Notes: generated by a model from the sequence alone, not told the origin. Counted from the first letter of the whole stretch, positions 4,868-48,086 are shown. The stretch: 53,930 nucleotides of DNA, filler included, from Jimgerdemannia flammicorona (GCA_003990765.1; 2 parts of 2 records of this genome joined end to end with filler, not necessarily neighbours in it), one strand, 5' to 3'. Numbers and translations: made by a program.

Positions 4868-5316
4868 CTCCAAATCAGCTCCAGGGGATGGCGGCGACAG
4901 CTTCGTTGAGAAGCGATGAGGCGACACCGAAATCCGCGAGGTCGTGCGCGCGTTCCAGCACCATCTCCATGAGCTTCTGGAGTAGGAGAAAGTTTGCTGC
5001 CCGGTATATTCCTGCCGCGATGGAAATGTTGGCAGTGTTGTCGATGGCTCGGTAGGACGATGTTGAGCACCGGGAGGTGATGTCGTTGAAGACGGCGATG
5101 AGAGGAACCCTCTCGCATATTTCCGTACAATGTCGCTTTGAAGACCGGACTTCATTTAAGAAATCACATGTAATGAAGTCTGTGGGAAGTGTATAAAAAC
5201 GACAGACACAAGTGAGCTTGCAAAACTAAACTCGGGTAATCCTTGAAGCCGGTACTGCACGGCATGCGCCTAGCTCGATCCCATCAATCGTCCCTGAGAT
5301 TGCATTGCTCGACCAT
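4868..5316 (-). pseudogene. Truncated, frameshifted BTB-domain paralogue
   Basis: Aligns with the 5' parts of the genes at 6113-7622 and 16554-21084 (ATG at 5316, ELGACRAV, YGNMREG, LERAHDL, ASSLLNEAVAAIPWS in shifting frames). Has deletions and stops abruptly at ~4868. Confidence 0.85.
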
Positions 5317-6112
5317 TTTTATAAAAGTCAGAGAATAAAAAAATTTGGTTGGGATGTGTCTGGTTTGACTGCAGAAAGAGTAATCTACATGACACATGTA
5401 CTTAATTATTGAAACCAGTACGTATGTGAAAATGTCGAGATTCCTACATCGTCGCTCCGGCACATGAAATGGAGAGCATTACGGAGTGCTTAATTCAACT
5501 CAAAGCATCGTATCGTAATTCAACACCTCGGCCATAAGCACGTACATATATCATTTGCATGGATAGTTCAAATGTATGATTAAAAATATATACATTTCGT
5601 TTGATTCTTTACATCAGTCATGTACATGAATTTTTTTTTATTGTTTCATTTAGCAAAATTGATCTCTAGCGCAATGAACGAAACCAAAGATGTGTAAGGA
5701 ACATCGAAAGAAAATACTTATGTGCTGAAATTTAAGCCGAAGTCCCAGAGATCCAAACCATCAATTCAACCTCTAAAACAGGTCATTAGTGATGCTCATT
5801 TAGGTGGGCATTAGGCCCTGTATTCGGTGTTTAGTTTTTACTGTGTGGAATATACGATGAATTTTGATGTCCTGGATGCCGAATCGAATGTCTAAAGCTC
5901 AAATACAGACTTTTATACAAAATCATAAAGCAGAAAAATTCATTACTGATATTAAATCACCGCAGCCCTACTAAATATATATATATATATATAATATGAC
6001 AGATATGAATAATTATAGCTACAGTGTATATATCTCTGAAAATGTTTAGATGATTCAAAATAGGCTTTGATACAGAAAAATGGCAGTGTTCATATTGCTA
6101 AGCTAAGAGAAT

Positions 6113-7622
6113 TCAGCCTCGGTGATCTTTGATCCGGTACTTGCATCCTTCAGATAAGGACACTGCAGGGTATACCTTGTTGGAGAGATTGCTAAAGGCT
6201 ATCCCGTAATTGATTCCATTGATCGAAATAGCAAAGGTGTGGTCATTTGGGTTTAAATGCAAGGTAATGACATCACCATTTTCAATATGTTTGCCATAAT
6301 TATAATTTAGCCCACTTGCTAGACCAAACGTAAATTTGGTGTTGCCGACAGAAAGGAAACCCCACGAATATATCTGGGATGTCATGTGCGTATCAAAATA
6401 TGTGAATTCTTCGCCAACGAACCCAATAATACAGACACCAGTGTTGTTATATGATCCAATAGATTCGACGACAATGTCCCATTCGCATAGGCCGTTGTGA
6501 GCCTTCGTCCCGGGGACGGAAAGCCGTGCTGTCTGTGAAGAACCCCTCAATGGAAGCTCTACAACCATGCCATCTTCGGAAACGACCAATTGAGAACCGA
6601 TTTTCGATCTATCCCACTGGAGATTGCCACTATGATGTGCCTTTCCACGACTTGCAGACGGATGACCTATAGGGCATATGGTGTTCTTACAGGCGTGATA
6701 GCAAAATGCCATGTAGTGTGGAGAAGTCTCCGCAAACGTGTCAACTGCCTCCGTGAGGGTCTTGAGTCGATGCGGGCAAACGAGCGTGAGGTCAAAATGA
6801 CTCATCATTTGAAGCAGCAAGGCGCGCGATGCACCGTTTCCTAGCCGGACCGTGCCATGGCACCCCTCGGCCATATCATTGATGTCATGCAGAACAGCAT
6901 GGCGTTCCGAAGCTGACGGCCCGTTATCGTTGCGGCCCCAGACCCAGTCGACGATGCACAGCAATAGGTCATGCTCAGGCGTGGAAAGGGTGGCTACCTC
7001 GGTGAGGAGTAACTCGAGGGCCTCTTTGGAGAGGCCAGTCAGCTCGCCGATGGCGAGCTTGTGGGCACGGAAGGGGTTGAGAAGCACGTCGTAGAGATCC
7101 TTGTTGGCCTCGCTCCACGGTATGTCGGCGACGGCTTCGTTGAGAAGCGAGGAGGCGACACCAAAATCAGCGAGGTCGTGCGCGCGTTCCAGCACCATCT
7201 TCTTGAGCTTTGGGAGGAGGAGAAAGCTTGCCGCGCGGTATATTCCTACCGCGGTGGAAATATTTACAGTATTGTCGATTGTTTCGGTGTGAATGAACCC
7301 GAGGACAATGTTGAGCACCGTGGAGGTGATGTCGTTGAGGACGAACCGATATGAAAAACCCTCTCGATTGTTTCCGTACAGCATCGCCTTGAAGACCGGA
7401 CATCTTTTAAGTGACCGCATGAAATTAGGTGGAAAGTGCATAAATAATGACGGACGCAATTAAAATCAAAAATCGGACAAACCTTGAGGCCAGTACAGCA
7501 CGGCATGCACCTAGCTCGACACCGTCAGCGCAGACAATGGCCACATCGTGGTAAGTTGAGTCTTTCCAGATGGAGGCAATATCGTCCTTGAGACTAAAAC
7601 CGCTGTCGGATTGCTCCCCCAT
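6113..7622 (-). CDS. BTB/POZ + helical (BACK-like) + C-terminal SPRY/B30.2 protein, ~476 aa. Exons 7622-7483 and 7403-6113
   Basis: BTB signature YHDVAIVCADGVELGACRAVLASR|CPVFKAMLYG spans a GT-AG intron. The C-terminus has a SPRY pattern (CEWDIVVE, IIGFV, YGKHIENGDVITLHLN, FAISINGINYGIAF, VYPAVSL). Spliced length 1431 nt is in frame. Confidence 0.85.
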
Positions 7623-13700: not shown

Positions 13701-15536
13701 GGCTTGATGGTGATGTTGGTTCCATTCTGAATCAAGGTGACTTCATTCTTGGTCCAATCAATCTGAGGGTTATGTCATGTAAGCCAGGGTTTGCCTAGGA
13801 TCAGATCATGGTCTCCTAGTGGTGCTACCTCGAAATCTAAACATTCCCAGTACTTCTGGATCTTGAGAGGGAGTTTAGCAGCAATTGAGTCAATTGGTAA
13901 GGTAGTGCCATCTGTAGTGACAACTCTACCATTCTTGCTGGCTGGTTTGGAGAATCTTGAGCTTATTGATGAGGTTCTTGTTGATGAAGTTCTCAATAGC
14001 TCCACTGTCTATGAGAATATCTAGCTCTTGTCTCTTGACTAGGCCTTTGAAAATGAGCATTGAATTGACTTGGTTCTTGGCTATACTTGCAACTTTATCA
14101 GTGCTGCCAAAGTCTTTCTGATCTCGCTTGGTTGAAGACAGCTTGGTGACCTCTTTGATGACTGGTAGAGTGGCTTGCTCTAGAATGAGCTGTACAATTC
14201 TGTCACCTTCATTGATAGTATATGGTTAGTTCTTGTGGTTGACTAGCAGGACTTGCATTTCACCTCGGAAGTTAAGGTCAATGACTCCAGCACTAACATC
14301 CAATGAGTGCTTGAAACTGAGGCCAGATCTTGGTGCAATTCTTGCATAATGTTCCTTGGAAATTTCGACTGAAAGGTCAGTTGGAATGAGCCTTCTTTCA
14401 TGTGTAGGAATAGTAACTTGTTGTACTGCTTGAAGGTCCAAACCAATGACTCTTTCTGACTGTGCTTGAGGGATCTGGGTCTTGGGGTTGACTCGCATGA
14501 AATTGAGTACCACTTCTTGTTCAACTGGTTGACCTTGGGTGTCTTTGGACAGGACCAAAATTCTCTTTGGTTTGGCAGTTTTCTTGGGACATTTGGTTGC
14601 AATGTGACCAGGCTGATGGCAAAAGAAGCAGGCTTCAGCCTTCTTGAGACACTCCTTTTTCTTGGATGTAAGCTTGCCTTTTTTGCTCTTATTGATAGTG
14701 TCTAGGTCCATGGGGGCAGGTCCAATAGTTCTGACTTTGGGTTCCTCCCTTTTGTGGTTGTTGTTGAAAGGTGGTCTCTTCTGTTCAAAGCAGTGACCAT
14801 AGGTGATGATATTAAATCTATCAGCAATCTTCATTGCTGTATCTAGGTCCTTGGGTTCTTCTAGTTCAACATGAACTTGGGTTTGACCTTTTAGGCCTCA
14901 GATATACTTGTTGACCTTCTTGTCTTCAGTGACATGTGGTAATTCAAGCAGAATTGACAGGAATTATGCATTGTATGCTTACACAGACTTGAGTTGTTTG
15001 ACATTTGCCAGACAGTCTCGCGCAGTCTTAGTGTTATTGACTGGTTTGAATTGGTCTTGAACAGTATCAGAGAATTCATTCCAGGTTCTGATCCAGCCAG
15101 CAAATCTGATATTCTGGATATGGTTTCACTACTAGATTGCAGCATTTCCTTGGAGGAGTGTGGCAGTGAATTGGACTAGTGTTGCTTCTTTCAAATTGGT
15201 CAGTTCTCTATATTGCTCCAATTGAAAAAGCCAGGCATTGGTAGACAGTCCTCCTCTTTGACCATCAAAAGTGTCAGGCTTCTGAGGCTTGATAGTAACT
15301 ACTGTCAGATATATTGATATTGGTAGAGGTGTGGAGGTATGAGCAGGGGCCTTGCTTTCCTTTCTTTCTATGCATTCTTGAAGTTGGGCAATCTGAGCTA
15401 ATGCAGTCTGCAAAAGACTCTTGATGGCCCCATTTGACTGAGTAGAGTTTTGCTGTTCCTCTTCTTCTTGCTGATTGTATGAGGTATTGCCTGGACCATA
15501 GGTACTGTATGAAGGATTCCACCCATTGTCCTCCAT
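10750..15536 (-). pseudogene. gag-dUTPase-pol polyprotein with many stops and frameshifts
   Basis: Gag KPDTFDG...AWLFQLEQY; zinc knuckle CFFCHQPGHIATKC; dUTPase PRSG/GVID/FGST; protease LIDSGA (~14010); [28 protein letters not shown] (~12990); RNase H NHRSL/PDTLSR; integrase VTMDFIV, IVVFVDHL; chromodomain YLVKWMGYPEYDTTWEP (~10770-10820). Confidence 0.9.
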
Positions 15537-15593
15537 AGTGTTGTAACTGATATCTTGAGAGGTGTCTTGATAAGGCTAGGTGTAACTTAACTA

Positions 15594-16553: not shown

Positions 16554-19500
16554 TCACTTTTTGACGAGCTGCCCAAAGAATTCGATTATGGTGGCTGCAT
16601 AACCTTGCAACTTGTATTCGGCAGCCCTGATATGATTTTAACGGACAATTACATTAAGCAAAACGGAAAACTGAATTTAATAGGATTTTATGTTACTTAC
16701 TCTCTATCAGAAATCTCTTTCTGGAAGCAAATGATGTCTCCATCTTGAATTTCGGCCTGCTGAAACGTCGTTGGTGTCTTCATGGGGTCAATCATGCTAG
16801 GTTTGATTTCCTTTAACATTCAATATGTAAGATACAAAGCGCTAAGGCATCGCCCAACCATTCTACAGGCTCGTCTCACAAATCATTCAATAGCCTACCT
16901 CAAACAATTTTAGTGCAGTATTCAATGGGAATCCTTTCTTCATGTTTAAGATAGGGATGATATCGCGAACTTTCCCGTTCCGCTTCACATAGAGCTTGCC
17001 GCAACCCCTATTTACACACAATTCCAAGGCAACATCTGATTGAGGTCTTTGACACAACGAAAAAAAAGCAGCAACACACAACAGAAAAGCTCTACTAACT
17101 CGATTATCTGTGTTTTCGGATCAAAGTATTTGATAAAGATCATCAGAGATGGGTGGGCGAATACACCCTTTAAAGTCGAGAGTTTGTCACTAATGGGCAT
17201 GTAAGTCTCCTCGAGATAGAGTCGCAGGGTGCTCTGGTAGGCATCCATTCTGGTTTGGATGAATTCCATTGCTATAAGCAGCATTTTTTTTTTAAAAAAA
17301 AATACTATATTAGTACAGACACCTCAAGACACCTGAAACCAATGACCAACAACTTCTTTCATTTGGATGAAGCCCCAATAAATAAAGTGAAATAAAATAA
17401 ATATCCTAACACTTACATGAATTGGCTTCGGTCTCTGAGATCGGTTGGTCAGGCCTCACCGTCCGATTATATCGGTTGACAAGAATCCATAGCCTAAATC
17501 TGTTGACCGGGACCTGGAAATGGTCTGCGACTGATTGTTTGAATACTGAAAACCGCTCCTCCTTCTTTACGCGAAAAGATGGTATTTCTGACTGCATTGT
17601 CTTGTCATCGAAATTTGCCAGATCGAAACCTTGATGCACCTTGAATATGTCGTCTGTCACGACCTAGAGCAAATGATCGCACATGTAATAGGTATTGTAG
17701 CAGAGAAACCTTAAGATACACGACAACTGGTGAACGCAGCTCACCTTGGCAGTCAGATGCGTTTTGTTCTCCTCGTCAAGATGCATTTCTATAGTAAATA
17801 ATTCGGAACACGTAGTCCTTAAAAAAGTTCTGTAATGCGACACTTATGTGTTTTTCTGTATCATTGTTGCTTGATCACATCCTCCGAACAAACAAACGAA
17901 ATGAAAAGAATAAAAAAATAAATAAAAAAAGAAATAAGGAATAATAGGAAACAATACGCACCTATATGAGGTGGAATATCACCAGGTGATATCGGCGCGA
18001 GCATCTCATCGACATCAGACTCACGAATATACACAAGTGCGTATGCGCTCGTGAATCTTCTTTTTGCCGCCATTTGTGGTCGTCGGGCAACGAGTTGGTT
18101 GGCGTTGGGTGCCTCGCCCCCATAGTTATCCTCAAACACCTCAAGGTCCGTTACAGGCGTGACACGTTGACCTTCGTACTTGAACCACTTGTTGTCCTTT
18201 TTGGGCTTCAGAAAAGCAAAGTATTGACCACCGTCGAGATCACCACTATGCACTATGACGCTGAATATGAAAGAGTAACATATCATCAAAAGCATGTATA
18301 CAAACAGTATGCGGGGTGTTGTCATTGACTGTCAGGTTTCTGATTGAGCACTCTTACCCATGAAGGAGATATTTGTGTGGTCCGTTTCTGTCAGCGATCG
18401 GAGAAAGGAACTCCTCGAGGTCGATCTCAGGTGGAAATTCATGACGGCCATTAATCTAAGCACAATCGGCATGGTTAATTCTTTTCTGAATTCGAGATTA
18501 AGTGTCTATTTGCAGGGACAGCCATATCGTGGACCCACCTTGACCATAGTATCTTTTGAAATATCATATTCAAACCGCTTTAGTTGTACATATAGTACGG
18601 ACGGGAAGCTCTCGAAATAGACACCCCTCTTGACGTTTTGCAAACCGTGGTCCCCGATCTGTTGCTTTTCCACGAACTCAGCCACAAACTTCACGAAAGA
18701 TTCATAGAGGTTTTTGCACCCTTTCACGTCGAGTTGAATGTCTAATATATTGCGAAATCAAAAGAATCCAAGAATCAATGTCCACGTCGGTGATGCGACG
18801 ACAGTGCTTTCTCAGTTTACCATAATAATCCTCCACGCGCGAGAACTCATAATCGATGCTTATTCCCTTGACATAAGTCTTCATCTTGCCGATGAATAGT
18901 TTCTTCATGTCGCCATCGGCCGGTGTGTTCTAAAAATGGCAGAAGTCTCGTCACATAGACGTATTGTAGCATAGAATCTGATATTGACTTGCCCAACAAC
19001 GTAACATTTACTACACACCTTCATTTTGGACTCCAGGATTTCCTGTAAAATACGGTTAAACTCCAGAAATTCACGCTCCATGGATGTATCGAGAAAGTCC
19101 CACCCAAAACTCCTTGTCAACTCCGTTGTACCTAATCGTTAACCAAACAGCGAGTGGATTTAGAAACGTCCACTACATCTAAATGATATTAGCTGGCCTA
19201 TATAAGCTGTTCCAGCGCCCTTTCTTGGACTTGGCATCCTAGGGCCTACCTACCAACAGCTACTTCCGAGAACTGGAGATTATAAAACACGCGCTGTAGT
19301 GCCAAGGCAACGTTCTTGGTGGGTACGTCGGATTCCGTTGGGATCTTGTAGACAGCTCTACAAAAGAATTTTATCATATATAAACATTGCACGGCCGTGT
19401 TCAAGTAACTGGTCGTTCCCTGGTTTAAGAGGCCGACAAAACCGGTGACCTTTCTGGAGTCATAGCTAGTGGAAAATCGCAAACAATGAGCTTCATTTAC

Positions 19501-21084
19501 AATTGCAAGGAATGGATTCGCTACATTTTCCCACAACGCGCACTCACCTGACAAAGTTGTGCCACAGTACCCCAGTATGGTCTTTCAAGACACGCACGAA
19601 AGCAGAGATGACTGTCTGGTCATCGTCAATCAAGGGATATGAGCGCCCGTCATTTGGCTGAAACATCTTTTTGATATCACAGAATCGGGTGAAACCTAAG
19701 TTAGGCTTGTCAGCACAAAATCGATTGTGAGCGCTTCGATGCTTCAATTGGGTCGGATCGAACGGGTTAGATATCACCAACGCGAACTGAGCGCACGAAT
19801 GCTTTCCCTGCTCGGACGGCCCGGGGTCAACGAGTTGAAGATACATGGAGGTACTCTCTTTCTGGTTGTTACCAAGAGGGAAGAGCATAATTTTCCTACA
19901 TGTACAGGATAAAAGGTTGAAACCCCCGAAGAGAATGCAAAGTTTTGCCTAATAGTTCGAGTGGGAATACATAGAGAGGTAAAGCATGCTACCATTTCCA
20001 ACCGCCCGCCTCAAATTCCGGGCTGTACACCCTACCAGTCAGGGCACGCCAACTTTCGATTTTCCAGTGGAAGACTTGAAAATCCTCTACGTCGTGATCT
20101 AGGTCAGGCAGTATCTGTCGCGTAGGGCATAGGGTGTTCTTGCAGGCATGATGACAAAACGCCATGTAGTGCGGAGAAGTTTCCGCGAAGTTGTCAACTG
20201 TCTCCGTAAAGGTCTTGAGTCGATTTGGGCAAACAAGCGTGAGGTCGAAATGGCTCATCATTTTGAGCATCAAGGCGCGCGATGTGCCGTCTCCTAACCG
20301 GACCGTGCCAGCGCGTCCCGCAACCACATCGTTAATGTCATGCAGAATTGTACGGCGCTCCGAAGCCGACGTATTCTCGTTGCTTCGCCAGAACCAGTGA
20401 ACGACGCACAACAATAAGTCATGCTCGGGTGTGGAAAGAGTGGCTGACTCGGTGAGGAGCAGCTCGAGGGACTCTTCAGACAGGTCGGACAGCTCACCGA
20501 TGGCAAGTTTGTGAGTGCGAAAGGGGTTGAGGAGCACGTCGTAGAGGTCCTTGCTGGCTTCGCTCCAGGGGATGGCGGCGACAGCTTCGTTGAGAAGCGA
20601 TGAGGCGAAACCAGAATCAGCGAGGTCGTGCGCGCGTTCCAGCACCATCTCCATAAGCTTCTGGAGTAGGAGAAAGCTTGCTGCGTGGTATATTCCTACC
20701 GCGATGGAATTAGTGACAGTGATGTCGATGGCCTCGGTGTGAATGAAGCCGAGGACAATGTTGAGCACCGTGGAGGTGATGTCGTTGAGGGCGACGCGAT
20801 GAGAATAACCCTCTCGCATGTTTCCGTACAGCATCGCCTTGAAGACCGGGCATCTTTTAAGAGATTACATGATATTAAGTGTGTGTAAAATGTGTAGAAA
20901 ACGACGGACACAATTAAACTGTGCAAAATCGAAATCGGACAAACCTTGAAGCAAGTACTGCACGGCATGCGCCTAGCTCGACTCCGTCAGCGCAGACGAT
21001 GGTCACATCGTGGTAAGTTGGGTCTTTCCAGATGGAGGCGATATCGTCCCTGAGATTAAAACCGCTGCCGTATTGCTCGACCAT
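16554..21084 (-). CDS. BTB + helical + MATH + USP7/Ubp15-like (pseudo-)catalytic domain + UBL1-2 fusion, ~1045 aa. Exons 21084-20945, 20853-19993, 19895-19548, 19465-19254, 19131-19019, 18929-18821, 18741-18539, 18455-18358, 18260-17962, 17788-17745, 17663-17417, 17271-17100, 17007-16899, 16810-16701, 16626-16554
   Basis: All 14 introns are GT-AG with compatible phases, giving 3138 nt in frame to TGA. BTB motif as in the paralogue; MATH FHWKIESW...SPEFEAGGWKWKIMLFPLGN; USP7 hallmarks GVLWHNF, YDSRKVTGFVGLLNQG, ALALQRVFYNLQ, TTELTRSFGWD, QLKRFEYD, VHSGD, AYALVYIRE; UBL region HQGFDL, NRTVRP, FIKYFDP, FEEIKP, AEIQDGDIICFQK. Confidence 0.9.
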
Positions 21085-26897: not shown

Positions 26898-29800
26898 TTT
26901 TTTTTTTTTTTTTTTTNNNNNNNNNNNNNNNNNNNNNNNNNNNNNNNNNNNNNNNNNNNNTTAATTAATTAANNNNNNNNNNNNNNNNNNNNNNNNNNNN
27001 NNNNNNNNNNNNNNNNCCCCCCCTACCCCTACCCAACAAAAGGCTACTTTGTCTAGCACTATTTCTACCCTTCCACCACTCTGTTTACAGATCCTTATCA
27101 CCAAACCACAATGCCACTCCCCCTGAGGACCCCACCTCACCCACCATCCAGTCAGCAGATCCCCCAACAACTCCTCCCATCATAATACCTTCTCCTGTAG
27201 CCCCACCTACTGCCTCTCCTCAAATACAAAAAGCCAATATCCAGCCAGTCCCACCTACACTGCTAACACCCACTAACTGAGATCTCAAGTCCTCCCTCAC
27301 CCACTGGCCTATGCTCCACACCCAGTCTATTCCCAATTTCTATCCAAAAGTTCCCCAAAACCTCACATTCTCCCAGCCAGTATTCCAGCATCTGCACAAG
27401 TCCCCCAGCTTGCCCTACATTGTAACACTCCTCACAATCTAATTGGCCACCATCCACCAGATGCCCAGTGTAGTAATTTAGCATGATATTCCTCTACAGT
27501 ATTCACCACCATACCATCCAGAACTTGGGAGGAAGCCATCTCTATACCTCAGCACTTCATGACCAGATACCTGCCCAGTCCCACTCCTTGCCAATCCCTG
27601 CTGCCTGCCAGCTACTTGGCCAAAGATCCTGGCCAAGACCCTGCTGATACTCCACTCTATCTCCAATATCAAACTCAGCAAGTAAAGCACCCCCCAGAAG
27701 TAGTCTATTCCATCGCTACATCTCAGGACCCCACATCACCTCCCCCTCATTGTCTCACTAGCACAGGCCAATTTGGTGTGCTCCATCTACCACCCCCCAC
27801 CAAAATTCTTTAAACTGCAGCCACTGATTTCCATTCAGCCTCACCAAAGAGAGCAGATCTTCTGAGGACCCTCAAGGGGAGGTTCTCATCTCCCACACCT
27901 TCTGCAGTAGTAGCACCCAACCCCCTCCCTGTAGTTCAGCAGCTCTCTTCAACCACCAGGCTCGCAAACAGTGCAACTTCTTAGGGAAATCCACAAGGCC
28001 AAGACCTCCCCTGACCACTGGTGTTGCCAGAGTATCCCAACTGATCTGGGACCTCCTCCCTGCCCAAATCCAATCTCTAGCCACCTTCGTCAGCCTCTTC
28101 ACCACCCAAGCTGGGAAGTCTAGGTGATAGGTCACATACTATAGCTTGGGGAACCAGTAGATATTCAGAATTGATACCTGCTCTGTCAGAGATATATGGC
28201 GGCCTCCCCAACCTCGAAGGGCCTCCCCCCAAATGGTCACCCTACTCTCCCACCACACCTGTGGTAAGACAGAACTATATACAGAAAGGAAGATGCCCAG
28301 ATACCACACTACCTTGCTAGTAGGGACAATTGTTCCAATGATGTCTCCCCCACTAGTCTATTCCCTAGCACCATTGTCTCACACTTATGCTAGTTGAGCT
28401 TTGCCCCAGAGTGAGCCTCATACCATTCCACTGTCCCCTTAAGTGCCTCGACATCTGCCACTGACCCAAGTCTAACCACCATGTCATCAGCAAAGGCCCC
28501 CACCTTCCACACTATACTATATATAGAGAGCCTTGCTATCTTCTGGCAAATTCTATCCATCAAAGGCTCTAATGAAAGGGTATAGAGAATAGGGGACAGA
28601 GGGTCCTCCTGAGGAACTCCTCTTCCCAAGGAAAATGCCAGACCTCAGTGACCATTATACATTAGTGCCTCCTGACTGCTCTCTAGTAGACTCAATATAG
28701 AAGCCCAAAATCTTAGGGAAACACCAAGTCGATCCAACACCTTGCCCAGCCAAACCCGCCATACATGGTCATAGGCCTTCTCCTGGTCCAAAAAGACCAA
28801 CCTTCCATCTAGTCCACAAGCCTGGGCCCCTTCAATGACACCATGCACCCATGCAGTCTCATCTCTTATAAGTCTGCCCCCAACAAAGCCCCACTGCTCC
28901 TCCCCCAGTACCTGTTGGGCAACTTTCTGCAGCCTTGTGACAATCATCTTAGTCACCATCTTCCTGTCCATATCCAGAAGTATGATTGGTCTCCAATTCT
29001 TCCAGTCTTCTCTCCTCCCCTTATCTTTGTACAATAAGGCCACCAGCCCAAGGTCCTGCTCTCCAACCCACTCACCACTCTGAAGAACATTGTCACAGAG
29101 AGCAGCCATCTCCCCCAAAACTCCAGGGACCTTTACCATCTTCTTTCAGAAGTCCCACAGTAACCCATCCTCCCCTGGCGCCATTCCTAGCTTAGTTGCT
29201 GCAAGGACACTCTGGATCTCCTCTTCTTGCACCAGTAAGATCAAGTCACCCAGTCCTGCTACTTGCAGCAGCTCCCACTCCTCTAGTGTATCTTCAATCA
29301 CCTCCTCATCAGCACCCCCTTCCCCCTCACTCCATAAACCCTGCCATCTCTTCTTCAAAACCCCTAAGATTTGTTGTATACTATGCACCATATCCCCCTC
29401 GGCATCTAAGACCCCATCCCACTGATGTCGTACCCTCCTAGCTTTGAGAAGTCTTGACAAGTATCTAGTAGGCCACTCACCCTCCTCAAGCCCCTGCCAC
29501 CATAGCCTGGCAGCCATTCCTTGCATATGAGTCTCCTCCTCCTCTCACAATACCTGTTGCAGTTCCACTATCTCCAATTTCGCCCACTTTAACCTCCAAT
29601 CCTCTACCCCATCAGAAGTAAGCAAATCTACCCAAATCATTTGCAGCTCTTCAGCCTGCTGGAAGCACACCTTGTACACTTCCTCCTCTGTCTCCCAGCT
29701 TCTCTACCAGCTCCTCCCCAATAAACCCTCACAGCCTCTTTCAATCTCATCCAACAGACACCCACAGACAAACCCTCATATCTCCAGGTAGACACCTTCA

Positions 29801-44805: not shown

Positions 44806-47800
44806 TGTTGAGATATGACAACTCAATATATATGTTGACATTATCATAGAAGACATCACCAATCAGTGTGATCAGTACATGTAAATTCATATCACATGTA
44901 TTATCCAATAAATCACTCTTTCTTCTCTATATCTCAAAGAAGTACTATTATACAACAAAGGTTATGAGCCCCACTAGTACAAAGCAGCAATAACCATAGT
45001 AAAAATACCTCTTTAATATATGCTATGCTACACACACAACACTATGATAGATCATGATGATTAAGAAGAGCAAGGAAGCTCAGATCAGCCAATCACAAGC
45101 ATTCTGGCAATAGTAGAAATAGTCCCCATTATGGGTGTAACCATGGGTGTAACCATAATGGGTATAGAAATAACAGTTCCTGTTATAAGTGTAAACATGA
45201 GCAAGAGGTCCATTCTGATCTTCAATGGGAAAGATTATGCCATTTGGGCATTCTATATAAAGAATCTCCTTGACAAATATGGCTTAGCTATCTATACAAA
45301 GCTACAAGTACAAATTTCACATTACAATACTAACAATGATCACTAAGTACTATGAGAGATTACATTCATACTGTTGAATTTGCAAATGAAGCTCATAATG
45401 CACACTATGATGATACATGACATATGAGAGGTTCTACACATAAATCACATTCAAGTATCTACATTAAACAGGTTCCACTTGAAATCACAGCTATTCAACA
45501 TAAGAATGAAGCCCAAGGAGTGCATCTGTGATTACATCAATCAGGTCAATGACCTGGTGAATGAGGTGAATTCTGTCAGTATATTGATAGATTGCATTGG
45601 TGATAAAGACAAGGTTCTGGTGCTTACAAGAGGCCTTCCTGAGATGTACAATATAGTTGTTGCCACTATACATGAAAGTGAGAGCCTTGTGAACTATACC
45701 CACATGATCACAAGCCTCATCAATAGGGAAATGCACCAAGGAAACAGTCCTAATGATACCAAAGATGATGATGAAAGGGCATTCTATGGGTTCTACAGAT
45801 ATAGCACTGGTAGCAAACATGGTCAATAGCAAAAAGGCGACCAACAAAGAGGAGGAACCTAAACCCAAAATCAATGTGATAGCAGCCAATCAGGTAAGAT
45901 CGATGAGTATTATTATTACTATGGCAAGTATGGCCATATATAGTGTGATTGCTATTGTAAGGATAAGAAAAGTAGTGAAAATGAAAATAAGTAAGGAAAA
46001 GAAAAGTGTGGAGAGAATTATGGCAAAGAGAAACATAGCTATACAAATACTGCTAAAACTAATGAAAGTGGTAATCTATTTTTTGTATAAGATAATACCA
46101 GTTTTGCCAGATCCACCACCAATCCGTCATCTATAACCAGTCAGGAAAATACTTTTAGGCTGATGAAAAGTGGTGATGATAGCAATCCCAGTAAATGGGC
46201 CAATACAGTCAATGACAACAATGTCTGGCTCATGGATTCAGGAGCCACACAATATATGACAGCCCACTGGGAGTGGTTCTCTATGTATGAATTGTTTGAA
46301 CATCTGGTACCTATCAAACTGGGGAACAACAATATAATCTATGCTCAAGACAAAGGAAATGTAGAGATACATCTCTACAGGAATGTTGTCAAGCCTGTAG
46401 CCACTCTTGGAGATGTACTATACACTCCGGAGATAGAAAAGAATCTCTTTTCCATAGGTAAGATAATGGGTTGAGGCAATAAGGAGATGTATATACATCC
46501 AAAAGACACAACTATATATGGCCTATATAGTAATAAATATAATAAGATATTGATGATAGTCTCAAAGTGAGGCAATCTATATATGATCAATGATATACTG
46601 AATGAAGCAAAAGCCTTTGCATATACAACAACAACTATGTGTGATATATACAATACATGGCATAAATATTTGGGGCATATCAGCAAATCGAGCCTTGAAT
46701 GGATGATCAGAAATAGCTCAGTGAGTAGATTGCCAGCATATATACACATAGATAACAACTTCTGTAAAGATTGCATGGTGAATAAGATATTCCAGCACCC
46801 ATTTGAAGAATGATGAAAGTATGTCTCAGAGATCCTAGATCTTATCTATACTGATATATGCAGTCTAATATATGTATATAGCATCATATTCCAGTAAGAG
46901 GTATTTCCTCATATTTATCAATGATAATATATATAAGGTATATATATATCTTCTATTAGTGAAAAGCAAAGTCTTAGAGAAATTCAAAGAATTTAAAGTG
47001 ATTGCTGAGAATGAGATGAGATGTAAAATATACACTATATGCTCAGACAATGGCCAGGAGTACATAAATGGCCAATTTAGGCAATTTCTGACAAAATACA
47101 GCATATGCCATTAGACAATGGCTCTCTATATACCTCAGAAAAACAGCATGGCTGAGCGATTTAACTGTATAGTTGTAGAAATGATGTATATGATGATTAA
47201 TATAGCTGGATTGGGATACTCCTATTGGGTAGAAGCCATAAATATGGTAGTATATATCTGTAATCAGTATATATCTCAATCATTAAGCAAGGACTCTGGC
47301 AATAAGTATTCCAGGGATACTGATTGTACTTCTGAGGAATTATGGAGTAGAATGAAGCCAGACATATCCCATCTATGGATCTTCAGTTGTGAGGTATATA
47401 TCCTCAATAAAAGCAATATAAATCAGTATAAATTCAAGCCAAAGGCCAGTAAGCATGTCCTTCTAGAGTATAGTGGGAAATCATATAGGCTCTGGAATCT
47501 GTATATGAGACATATGGTAATTTTGCATGATGTACAGTTTAGAGAAAAGAGAGATTCAGAGACCTACATGGATGTATCAGTCAAGATATCTATATTCCAG
47601 CCAGTACAACCACCTCTAACATCTCTGAAGGCTCAAGCAGTGAATCAAAATTATTATCAACCACTATATGAGCTTGAGCCAACATTATCTGAAGAACCAG
47701 AAGAAATGATTAAGATTAAAGATGATGATGAATCCTCTAGTAATGAGGAATCCATTAAGAGTAAGGGCAAGCAAAAGCCAAAGCATAAGTCTAGGAATGA

Positions 47801-48086
47801 GATATGTTCCAATTTAGGAAGTTATTGGGATGCACCAGTAAGCCCAAGGTGGCAACACAAGGATCATGTGAGCTATACTGATGTATATGAATGCATATAC
47901 ATCATGATATCCAGTGAGCCATACATATATGACAAGGCTATGTAATGCCTGGACAGTAAGAAATGGGAACACACAATAGATGAGGAATATGATTTGCTCA
48001 TCGAAAATAATACCTGGGACTTAGTATCTCTTCCACAAAATCATTAAGCAATAGGATCCAAATGGGTGTATAGAATAAAGTGCAAT
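44806..48086 (+). mobile_element. Ty1/Copia LTR retrotransposon, 5' portion, interrupted at the start of RT by LINE copy 3
   Basis: Short LTR TGTTG...CAACA (44806-44957) and PBS. Gag FNGKDYAIWAF; protease WLMDSGATQYMT; WHKYLGH...CKDC; integrase SDNGQEY, PQKNSMAERFN; RT start ENNTWDLV...GSKWVYRIK. Confidence 0.9.
44960..44971 (+). promoter_or_regulatory. Copia PBS GGTTATGAGCCC (internal, half-molecule tRNAiMet type)
   Basis: Lies 2 nt after the LTR end and matches the GGTTATG(G/A)GCCC PBS known for Drosophila copia / yeast Ty5-type elements. Confidence 0.8.

Follow-up and report, generated by a model that had tools for sequence, protein, structure and literature searches.

A BTB-MATH-USP7 fusion gene with a replaced catalytic triad in Jimgerdemannia flammicorona: a probable retained pseudo-deubiquitinase

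We analysed a stretch of 53,930 nucleotides from Jimgerdemannia flammicorona (GCA_003990765.1; two parts joined end to end with filler; hereafter the window), which carries on its minus strand a gene that fuses a BTB-BACK-like module to the MATH domain, the ubiquitin-specific protease (USP) fold and part of the ubiquitin-like (Ubl) region of a USP7-type deubiquitinase (DUB), with all three catalytic residues replaced. The whole coding region, put together from tblastn pieces and contig joints, spans 16554..21084, from the ATG at 21084 to the TGA at 16556-16554; coordinates here and below are on the minus strand unless stated otherwise. The gene model consists of 15 exons (exon 1, 21084-20945; exon 2, 20853-19993; exon 3, 19895-19548; exon 4, 19465-19254; exon 5, 19131-19019; exon 6, 18929-18821; exon 7, 18741-18539; exon 8, 18455-18358; exon 9, 18260-17962; exon 10, 17788-17745; exon 11, 17663-17417; exon 12, 17271-17100; exon 13, 17007-16899; exon 14, 16810-16701; and exon 15, 16626-16554), which hold 1045 codons with 0 internal stops, and its 14 introns all have GT..AG ends. 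The proposal of the first-pass annotation, made from this DNA alone, that 15 exons run without a stop or frameshift is borne out by this model.

Contigs from two public runs of one organism from two studies (X1 and X2, whose labelling as RNA is a guess, and one of which possibly comes from the same material as the window) revealed exon-exon joints with GT..AG ends at 12 of the 14 introns. Intron 2 is backed by a single 17-base loose contig end, and no joint across intron 12 (17099-17008) is listed among the X1 and X2 contigs, with some bins uncovered in either run. Two odd joints, each found in a single X1 contig (16531>16700, bounded by CG..TA, and 20851>20943, bounded by AT..AA), were not used. 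The intron-less contigs are most simply mRNA. The junction between the BTB and USP7 parts is crossed by an X1 contig (20045-20221) with 0 differences, and the stop codon is passed unspliced by an X1 contig (16301-16625) and an X2 contig (16386-16625), again with 0 differences each, so that the sequence 3' of the TGA to at least 16301 is a 3' untranslated region of at least 250 bases.

The domains were located by a Pfam search run on the open reading frame (ORF) pieces of the window and by homology. The BTB domain covers residues 1-125 (20619..21084, including intron 1 at 20944-20854; PF00651, E = 1.3e-07 on the exon-2 ORF), followed at residues 126-293 (20115..20618) by a BACK-like helical region, which was assigned by homology to residues ~125-297 of the relative P0113 and gave no match to Pfam BACK on the ORF pieces. 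The fusion junction CP/TRQILPDLDH lies inside exon 2 (20094..20129), where the DNA alignment to a neighbouring BTB-SPRY gene ends (...KNTLCP) and the USP7 homology begins; the USP7 tblastn match starts at 20111, at USP7 residue ~41 and just ahead of MATH, and the BTB-BACK part, joined in-frame, stands in for the first ~40 residues of USP7. The MATH/TRAF domain (residues ~300-450; 19548..20096, including intron 2; PF22486, MATH_2, E = 1.1e-07) bears Asn399-Leu400 (19697..19702) at the place of the canonical Asp-Trp of the DWGF peptide-groove motif, as the alignments indicate; this Asp-Trp, which we take to have a role in peptide binding, is present in the J. flammicorona relative P0091. The USP (peptidase C19) fold extends over residues ~455-790 in exons 4-9 (17975..19452), with Pfam UCH (PF00443) matches of E = 3.8e-09 and 5.7e-09 on two ORF pieces and a third of 0.0014 that falls under the cut-off. 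Residues 810-1045 (16557..17663) form the USP7 Ubl region, a partial ICP0-binding domain of which the start of PF12436 was matched; the same profile is matched at positions 1-168 of 241 in P0004, another J. flammicorona protein. By tblastn, the exons are each 47-70% identical to fungal USP7, and a PDB sequence search with exon 14 alone gave no match.

The order of MATH, USP fold and Ubl domains is that of USP7/HAUSP (Ubp15, family C19), from which the fusion protein differs in being a paralogue, in its BTB-BACK N-terminus, replaced triad, changed QHDVQEF box and 4-residue fingers deletion, and in its end near human residue 800. The protein stops after ...EFFGQLVKK (TGA, 16554..16556, run through by X1 and X2 contigs), which maps to about human residue 800 in the alignment to the PDB chain 5j7t_A, a position that by the domain limits of USP7 we take to be just past Ubl2. 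A tblastn search of the window with residues 761-1105 of the basidiomycete USP7 protein P0002 found nothing past residue 784 (next best E = 0.54). USP7 has five such domains at its C-terminus; since the end maps there, most of Ubl3, the activating Ubl4-5 and the tail (PF14533), about the last 300 residues in all, appear to be missing. According to a part of PMC4243247, the catalytic domain of USP7 adopts an incompetent conformation and depends on the two Ubl domains at the C-terminus, to which the switching loop is bound. Truncation of the gene by the downstream retroelement was considered and ruled out: P0004 ends at the same residue (...EFFEQLVKQ), and the contigs read through the stop.

Analysis of the catalytic site indicated that Ser469 (codon AGT, 19408..19410) occupies the position of the catalytic Cys (human C223) in both the P0002 tblastn match and the alignment, the Cys box reading NQGTTSY in contrast to the NQGATCY of 49 canonical fungal USP7 proteins. 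Gln707 (CAA, 18224..18226) is located at the catalytic His position (human H464), giving GGQY for GGHY. The third triad residue (Asp/Asn, human D481) is replaced by Glu724 (GAA, 18173..18175), the first residue of a Glu-Gly-Gln stretch (GAA GGT CAA, 18167..18175) that stands for the Asp-Asp-Asp of USP7 (human D481-D483), and the Asp box is WFKYEGQ, compared with a consensus of W.K[FY]DDD and with WLKFDDD in P0002. Human numbering was obtained by aligning a close relative to 5j7t_A (index + 210); all three columns match C223, H464 and D481, and the alignment with 16 other proteins agrees. The substitutions and the motif readings NQGTTSY, GGQY, WFKYEG and EREFLE were already given in the first-pass annotation, and each stood up against the tblastn match, the alignment and the canonical proteins. 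Its remark that every triad change needs a single transversion is true and scarcely informative.

The codons recur in other reads. The Ser codon lies in an X2 contig (19380-19465) with 0 differences; the Glu codon is covered by X1 contigs over 18144-18202 without difference, and none is listed for X1 up to the joint at 18260; the Gln codon is contained in a soil-metagenome read (X3) identical over 18177-18327, including part of intron 8. Another X2 contig, 94% alike, reads Ala-Asp-Asp in the Asp box (KYADD in place of KYEGQ). It shows 13 base differences in 59 (18144-18202), altering 8 codons non-synonymously and 2 synonymously, a local divergence hot spot between close copies.

Changes extend to the surroundings of the cleft. 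The stretch WDFLDTSMEREFLEF (19058..19102) comprises the switching-loop region and the QHDVQEF box by alignment, and the box reads EREFLEF; the full motif is MEREFLEF, compared with MQHDVQEF in canonical proteins and LQHDVQEF in P0002, so that 5 of the 7 positions of the QHD box are altered. The change from QHDVQE to EREFLE had earlier been labelled as lying in the switching loop; the change is real, but its equivalent, human residues 293-298, lies just past that loop, which we take to be 285-291. The fingers region was likewise thought to be shortened; a deletion is indeed present, though it amounts to only 4 residues and is common to the family.

Since Cys, His and Asp are all replaced, the window copy should be unable to act as a cysteine protease. 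Hydrolysis of ubiquitin or a Ubl through Ser469 or non-canonical residues is very improbable, even though a part of PMC10919355 reports activity claims for USP39 and USP52 despite their missing triads, and even though Ser, His and Asp can be found between the relatives P0011 and P0004, which would in principle allow a serine-type triad. With Gln for His and Glu for Asp, the window copy has no general base; the altered QHD box and the absence of the activating Ubl4-5 and tail also speak against activity, as does the variation of the catalytic positions within the family (S/S/D at Cys, Q/H at His, and E/D/D/A at Asp).

Of 117 candidates from a protein search, 88 had E <= 0.001; a second search yielded 25 among 62. 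The nearest database proteins are partial gene models of J. flammicorona, a member of the Endogonaceae in the Mucoromycota: P0011 has the same Cys box, NQGTTSY; P0091 shares the identical BTB/MATH junction (KNTICPTRQILPDIDHDVEDFQIF) and has the Cys box NEGATDY, in which Cys is replaced by Asp; P0004 matches at the C-terminal end and retains GGHY and KYDDE. The Cys is thus lost in all three family sequences that cover the Cys box (S, S and D), and the His>Gln and Asp>Glu changes are private to the window copy among the family sequences aligned. An assembly chimera at the BTB/USP7 junction was ruled out by the 0-difference contig that spans it and by the junction shared with P0091.

A tree of 34 proteins (LG+G4, quick search; P0012, P0014, P0017, P0025 and P0031 left out, and P0040, P0043, P0060, P0070 and P0079 also not included) placed the window copy, P0004 and P0011 in one clade with an SH-like approximate likelihood ratio test (SH-aLRT) support of 100 and a stem of 0.34. 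This clade is sister to P0003, the canonical USP7 of J. flammicorona (support 100), so that the duplication of USP7 took place within the J. flammicorona lineage, and the window gene is a lineage-specific paralogue, not the Ubp15/USP7 orthologue. Compared with P0003, the USP domain is 65% identical and the Ubl region 72%, and the terminal branch of the window copy measures 0.14 changes per site. A Rhizophagus clarus protein with the same NQGTTSY box was considered as an orthologue of the family and ruled out, as it groups with the USP7 proteins of Glomeromycotina. In a metagenome scan with exon 9, one locus (L001) among 203 pattern matches encodes a relative, with 49% identity.

The N-terminal module has a paralogue in the same window, an intact BTB-SPRY gene of 2 exons and 476 amino acids (6115..7622; tblastn; Pfam BTB and SPRY), located 12.5 kb away on the same strand. 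Over 1001 bases the DNA of the fusion module and of this gene is 83.6% identical (another alignment gave a mean column identity of 86%), and the match takes in the intron and ~40 well-kept bases 5' of the ATG, becoming weaker for ~50 more. A third copy of the BTB module, truncated and decayed, lies at 4878..5353, with 83.2% identity over 428 bases, a stop in the tblastn match and at least 5 indels (12, ~53, 2, 1 and 14 bases); we used it as a local control for neutral decay. In a three-way alignment over the shared ~430 bases, private changes number 22 in the fusion, 44 in the BTB-SPRY gene and 55 in the fragment. Over the same bases the fragment seems nearer to the BTB of the fusion than to the BTB-SPRY gene. 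The triad changes had been contrasted with C>T erosion of nearby elements, of which a modest excess is all that appears here: C>T/G>A makes up 19 of the 55 private changes of the fragment.

Comparison of the BTB-BACK part with the BTB-SPRY paralogue gave a nonsynonymous rate (dN) of 0.095 and a synonymous rate (dS) of 0.44, with dN/dS of 0.22 over 290 codons, which shows constraint on this part. The two differ by one in-frame 3-base indel in the BTB part, whereas the decayed copy, at similar identity, has the 5 or more listed above. Across its 3135 coding bases and 28 splice dinucleotides, the whole gene carries neither a stop nor a frameshift, and no splice site is lost. In simulations of random substitution, the frame and the splice dinucleotides survived in 0.20 of runs at 30 substitutions, 0.037 at 60, 0.004 at 100 and 0.0008 at 150 (indels not counted); in view of the branch length of 0.14 and this low survival, the open frame is unlikely under neutrality. 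The differences listed between the window and near-identical contigs affect 16 codons synonymously and 20 non-synonymously, against an expectation under neutrality of ~3.2:1 in favour of non-synonymous (one-sided binomial p = 0.005); this tally mixes alleles and paralogues. Taken together, these results suggest that, well after its nucleophile had been lost, the family was still maintained with an open frame and intact splicing; the catalytic cleft appears to evolve almost freely. The first-pass conclusion that catalysis was lost and the USP fold kept accords with the intact frame, the spliced contigs, the relatives that also lack the Cys and the simulated survival of 0.004 at 100 substitutions.

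Several observations weigh against retention, and with them the main rival has to be judged, namely that the window gene is a transcribed, non-functional copy on its way to a pseudogene in a multi-copy family under birth and death, with an open frame left over from recent constraint. The gene had been described as otherwise intact, which does not hold: among 212 columns conserved at >=97% in the 49 canonical USP7 proteins, which were picked for four intact motifs, 48 are changed in the window copy and 164 are kept, compared with 3 of 151 changed in P0003. The changes include the MATH groove, where Asp-Trp has become Asn-Leu in the window copy alone, making MATH binding of USP7-type degrons less likely. 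Near-invariant columns are kept at 32/40 in MATH, 105/143 in USP and 27/29 in Ubl; because the protein set was chosen for intact motifs, ~21 of the 212 columns are invariant by construction, and without them ~154/191 are kept. Private changes are no rarer at invariant columns (12/102) than elsewhere (13/150; Fisher p = 0.52), and in the comparison sequence P0011 the expected depletion was seen (8/98, 16/111 and 8/48). The synonymous to non-synonymous tally among the differences listed is 9:14 in the USP domain (p = 0.07) and 2:8 at the Asp box. Finally, the models P0004 and P0090 carry exon 13 in a frame other than that of the window at 17007-16899 (GLWQAICAAE... vs GCGKLYVKRNG..., compared by eye) and may be broken or mis-annotated copies. 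The window copy itself may therefore have undergone recent relaxation.

A decaying copy would account for the His>Gln, Asp>Glu/Gly/Gln and Asp-Trp>Asn-Leu changes that are private to the window copy, for private changes that are not depleted at invariant columns, for the broken appearance of some J. flammicorona models, for the near-neutral change around the Asp box between close copies, and for the decayed BTB fragment and the retroelements around the gene. It would not readily account for the absence of any stop, frameshift or lost splice site, which is unlikely under neutrality for the branch length, for spliced contigs that match the window copy itself with 0 differences, or for the dN/dS of 0.22 in the BTB part. 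About 25 of the 48 invariant-column changes recur in one or more relatives, the rest being private or falling where relatives are gapped, so about half of them predate the copies. At 3 of the 12 private invariant-column sites the window retains the ancestral residue, leaving 9/102, and 5 of these 9 changes (two K>R, two D>E and one I>L) are conservative, which also argues against decay. We therefore regard ongoing pseudogenization as an unlikely explanation. We favour, with a probability of roughly 0.55, the reading that the gene is a retained pseudo-DUB serving as a non-catalytic scaffold, possibly as a Cul3 substrate receptor, a retention that we infer from the sequence features described above.

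To what the scaffold might connect is suggested by its BTB-BACK part. A PDB sequence search with exon 2 alone gave no match, and a family profile was needed; with it, the best PDB matches of the BTB were SPOP (1.8e-14) and KLHL3 (2.2e-13), followed by KBTBD4, KLHL22 and KBTBD2. Met59-Arg60-Glu61 (20811..20819) stands, by alignment and spacing, at the place of the Cul3-contacting phi-x-E motif. In this alpha3-beta4 region, the family consensus 'nmre' aligns to 'EMEE' of SPOP, and the fusion has M-R-E where the BTB-SPRY gene has N-R-E. In KLHL3, as given in a part of PMC3616122, Cul3 is contacted through phi-x-E, with A77, M78 and M83-S84-E85; the spacing A-M-x4-M-x-E in the window protein is the same as in these residues. 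The AlphaFold model of P0113, a relative with 48% identity (predicted local distance difference test, pLDDT, 84.4), is helical in the BACK-like region and matches KBTBD2-CUL3 at E = 2.8e-10 and the KLHL11-Cul3 BTB-BACK structure over 287 columns, with a template modelling (TM) score of 0.61 by target; it also matches the SPRY domain of RanBP9/10. The fusion point falls just past the last BACK helix of this model. Because the BTB-BACK scaffold is of the Cul3 type and the fusion follows that helix, the event would have swapped SPRY for MATH, the dead USP and Ubl1-2. Swappable C-terminal domains on a BTB-BACK scaffold are a layout typical of substrate receptors, by analogy with which the fusion may be read. 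The Cul3-adaptor step is nevertheless the weakest link of the proposed mechanism, and we hold it with less than even confidence.

Many BTB domains only dimerise, which leads to the nearest functional alternative: a pseudoenzyme that works without Cul3, as a decoy or dominant-negative competitor for USP7 partners or ubiquitin, with the BTB serving for dimerisation or oligomerisation only. The Ubl1-2 part, which in human USP7 binds partners, is the best-kept part of the protein, with its 27/29 invariant columns and its 72% identity to P0003, compared with 65% for the USP domain, and the Cys>Ser change is that of C223S, the standard catalytically inactive laboratory form of USP7. Set against this, Cul3 adaptors are the closest matches of the BTB, which retains the phi-x-E place, and the module's relatives have exchangeable domains at the C-terminus in the layout of substrate receptors, although a decoy is compatible with both points. 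We give such a decoy a low probability, and return to the retained scaffold with a possible receptor function.

In the mechanism that we propose for it, a USP7/Ubp15 gene of the J. flammicorona lineage would have been duplicated, and one copy would have lost the catalytic Cys together with the parts by which USP7 is activated (most of Ubl3, Ubl4-5 and the tail). This copy would have gained the BTB-BACK module of the BTB-SPRY gene in place of its first ~40 residues, and in the window copy the remaining triad would have drifted later (His>Gln, Asp>Glu). The BTB-BACK module would dimerise and dock Cul3, as in the parental BTB-BACK-SPRY protein, with the block of MATH, dead USP and Ubl1-2 replacing SPRY as the target- or ubiquitin-binding end; an eraser, the deubiquitinase, would thus have been rebuilt as a ligase receptor. 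It is a tentative proposal that the dead USP7 family serves as receptors of Cul3 RING ligases (CRL3), bringing USP7 clients or already ubiquitylated proteins to the ligase.

Known systems share parts of this arrangement. SPOP, the best PDB match, and other MATH-BTB receptors combine MATH with a Cul3-type BTB(-BACK) as the fusion does, and the phi-x-E of SPOP aligns; in the fusion, BTB-BACK stands ahead of MATH, the opposite order, its MATH derives from USP7 and has Asn-Leu in the groove, a dead USP and two Ubl domains follow, and Cul3 binding is predicted. The laboratory mutant C223S of USP7 carries the same nucleophile replacement, whereas in the window it is a natural change, accompanied by those of His and Asp and by loss of the activating domains, and fixed in a gene family. 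USP39 is part of a spliceosome complex and PAN2 (USP52) of the PAN2-PAN3 complex; both are ancient, single-copy and eukaryote-wide, in contrast to the window copy, which is young, multi-copy, USP7-derived and BTB-fused and whose family is lineage-specific. In USP39 an Asp takes the place of the Cys, as in P0091. As stated in a part of PMC10919355, USP39/Sad1 and USP52/PAN2 combine a USP fold with the lack of the catalytic Cys and His and are presumed scaffolds, which likens them to the window copy; the same source lists the two as USP-family pseudo-DUBs, both now debated.

Other fungi also have USP7 paralogues with replaced catalytic residues. The full triad is lost in Melanogaster P0056 (C>G, H>Q, D>N) and Racocetra P0077 (C>S, H>R, D>N); Cetraspora P0088 has C>S and H>S, Mycena galopus P0076 has C>G and H>R, and Rhizophagus clarus P0018 has C>S. 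These losses are independent, as each paralogue groups with its own taxon in the tree. They resemble the window copy in the replacement of catalytic residues in a USP7-like protein and differ from it in having no BTB in the precomputed Pfam list, and several retain the USP7 C-terminal domain. Three further USP7 paralogues with replaced catalytic residues (P0054, P0082 and P0083) come from the same five taxa. A part of PMC8778642 describes C19 hydrolases as abundant in Mucoromycota. In our literature searches, we found no paper on these losses in fungal USP7 paralogues, and no USP7-derived pseudo-DUB or BTB-MATH-USP fusion in print.

In Gigaspora rosea, P0146 combines BTB and BACK with a USP7-type MATH, including the USP7 N-terminal lead-in, and has no USP domain. 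It is like the window fusion in its BTB-BACK and USP7-type MATH and differs in its BTB family (Pfam BACK was found) and in the lack of any USP or Ubl part. It is a second, independent fusion of a BTB scaffold to a USP7 MATH, which fits the Cul3-receptor reading of the window gene. The BTB module itself belongs to a small family: a search among 1.84 billion gave 107 representatives with E <= 0.001, of which 24 reach <= 1e-10 and 11 reach <= 1e-30. Among 15 BTB relatives that were scanned, the C-terminal domain is SPRY in 5, a kinase in 1, a caspase in 1 and MATH in 1. In J. flammicorona, P0116 and P0127 join the BTB-BACK module to a protein kinase domain and to a caspase domain, and the module looks like a shuffling-prone scaffold.

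Because the case is young, USP7-derived and multi-copy, the order of events is still readable: duplication, loss of the nucleophile and the activating domains, fusion to a ligase adaptor, and drift of the rest of the triad. The gene family can serve as a natural experiment on the use for which a USP fold is retained after catalysis ends, and it is a concrete case in which domains have been shuffled between the erasing and the writing side of the ubiquitin system. If the family does act as CRL3 receptors, a deubiquitinase would have been turned into its functional opposite in Endogonaceae, and the Gigaspora fusion together with the repeated triad loss among USP7 paralogues of further mycorrhizal fungi would mark a recurrent route of innovation in expanded genomes. 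If the window gene is only a decaying copy, it would be no more than what gene-family turnover commonly leaves behind in a fungal genome rich in transposons.

The region around the gene is transposon-rich. A scan of the window revealed retroelement remains: ORFs that bear a dUTPase domain and lie downstream of the gene (13926-15575, minus strand), a reverse-transcriptase fragment (28645-29145, minus strand) and a retroviral-type integrase SH3 domain (47115-47945, plus strand).

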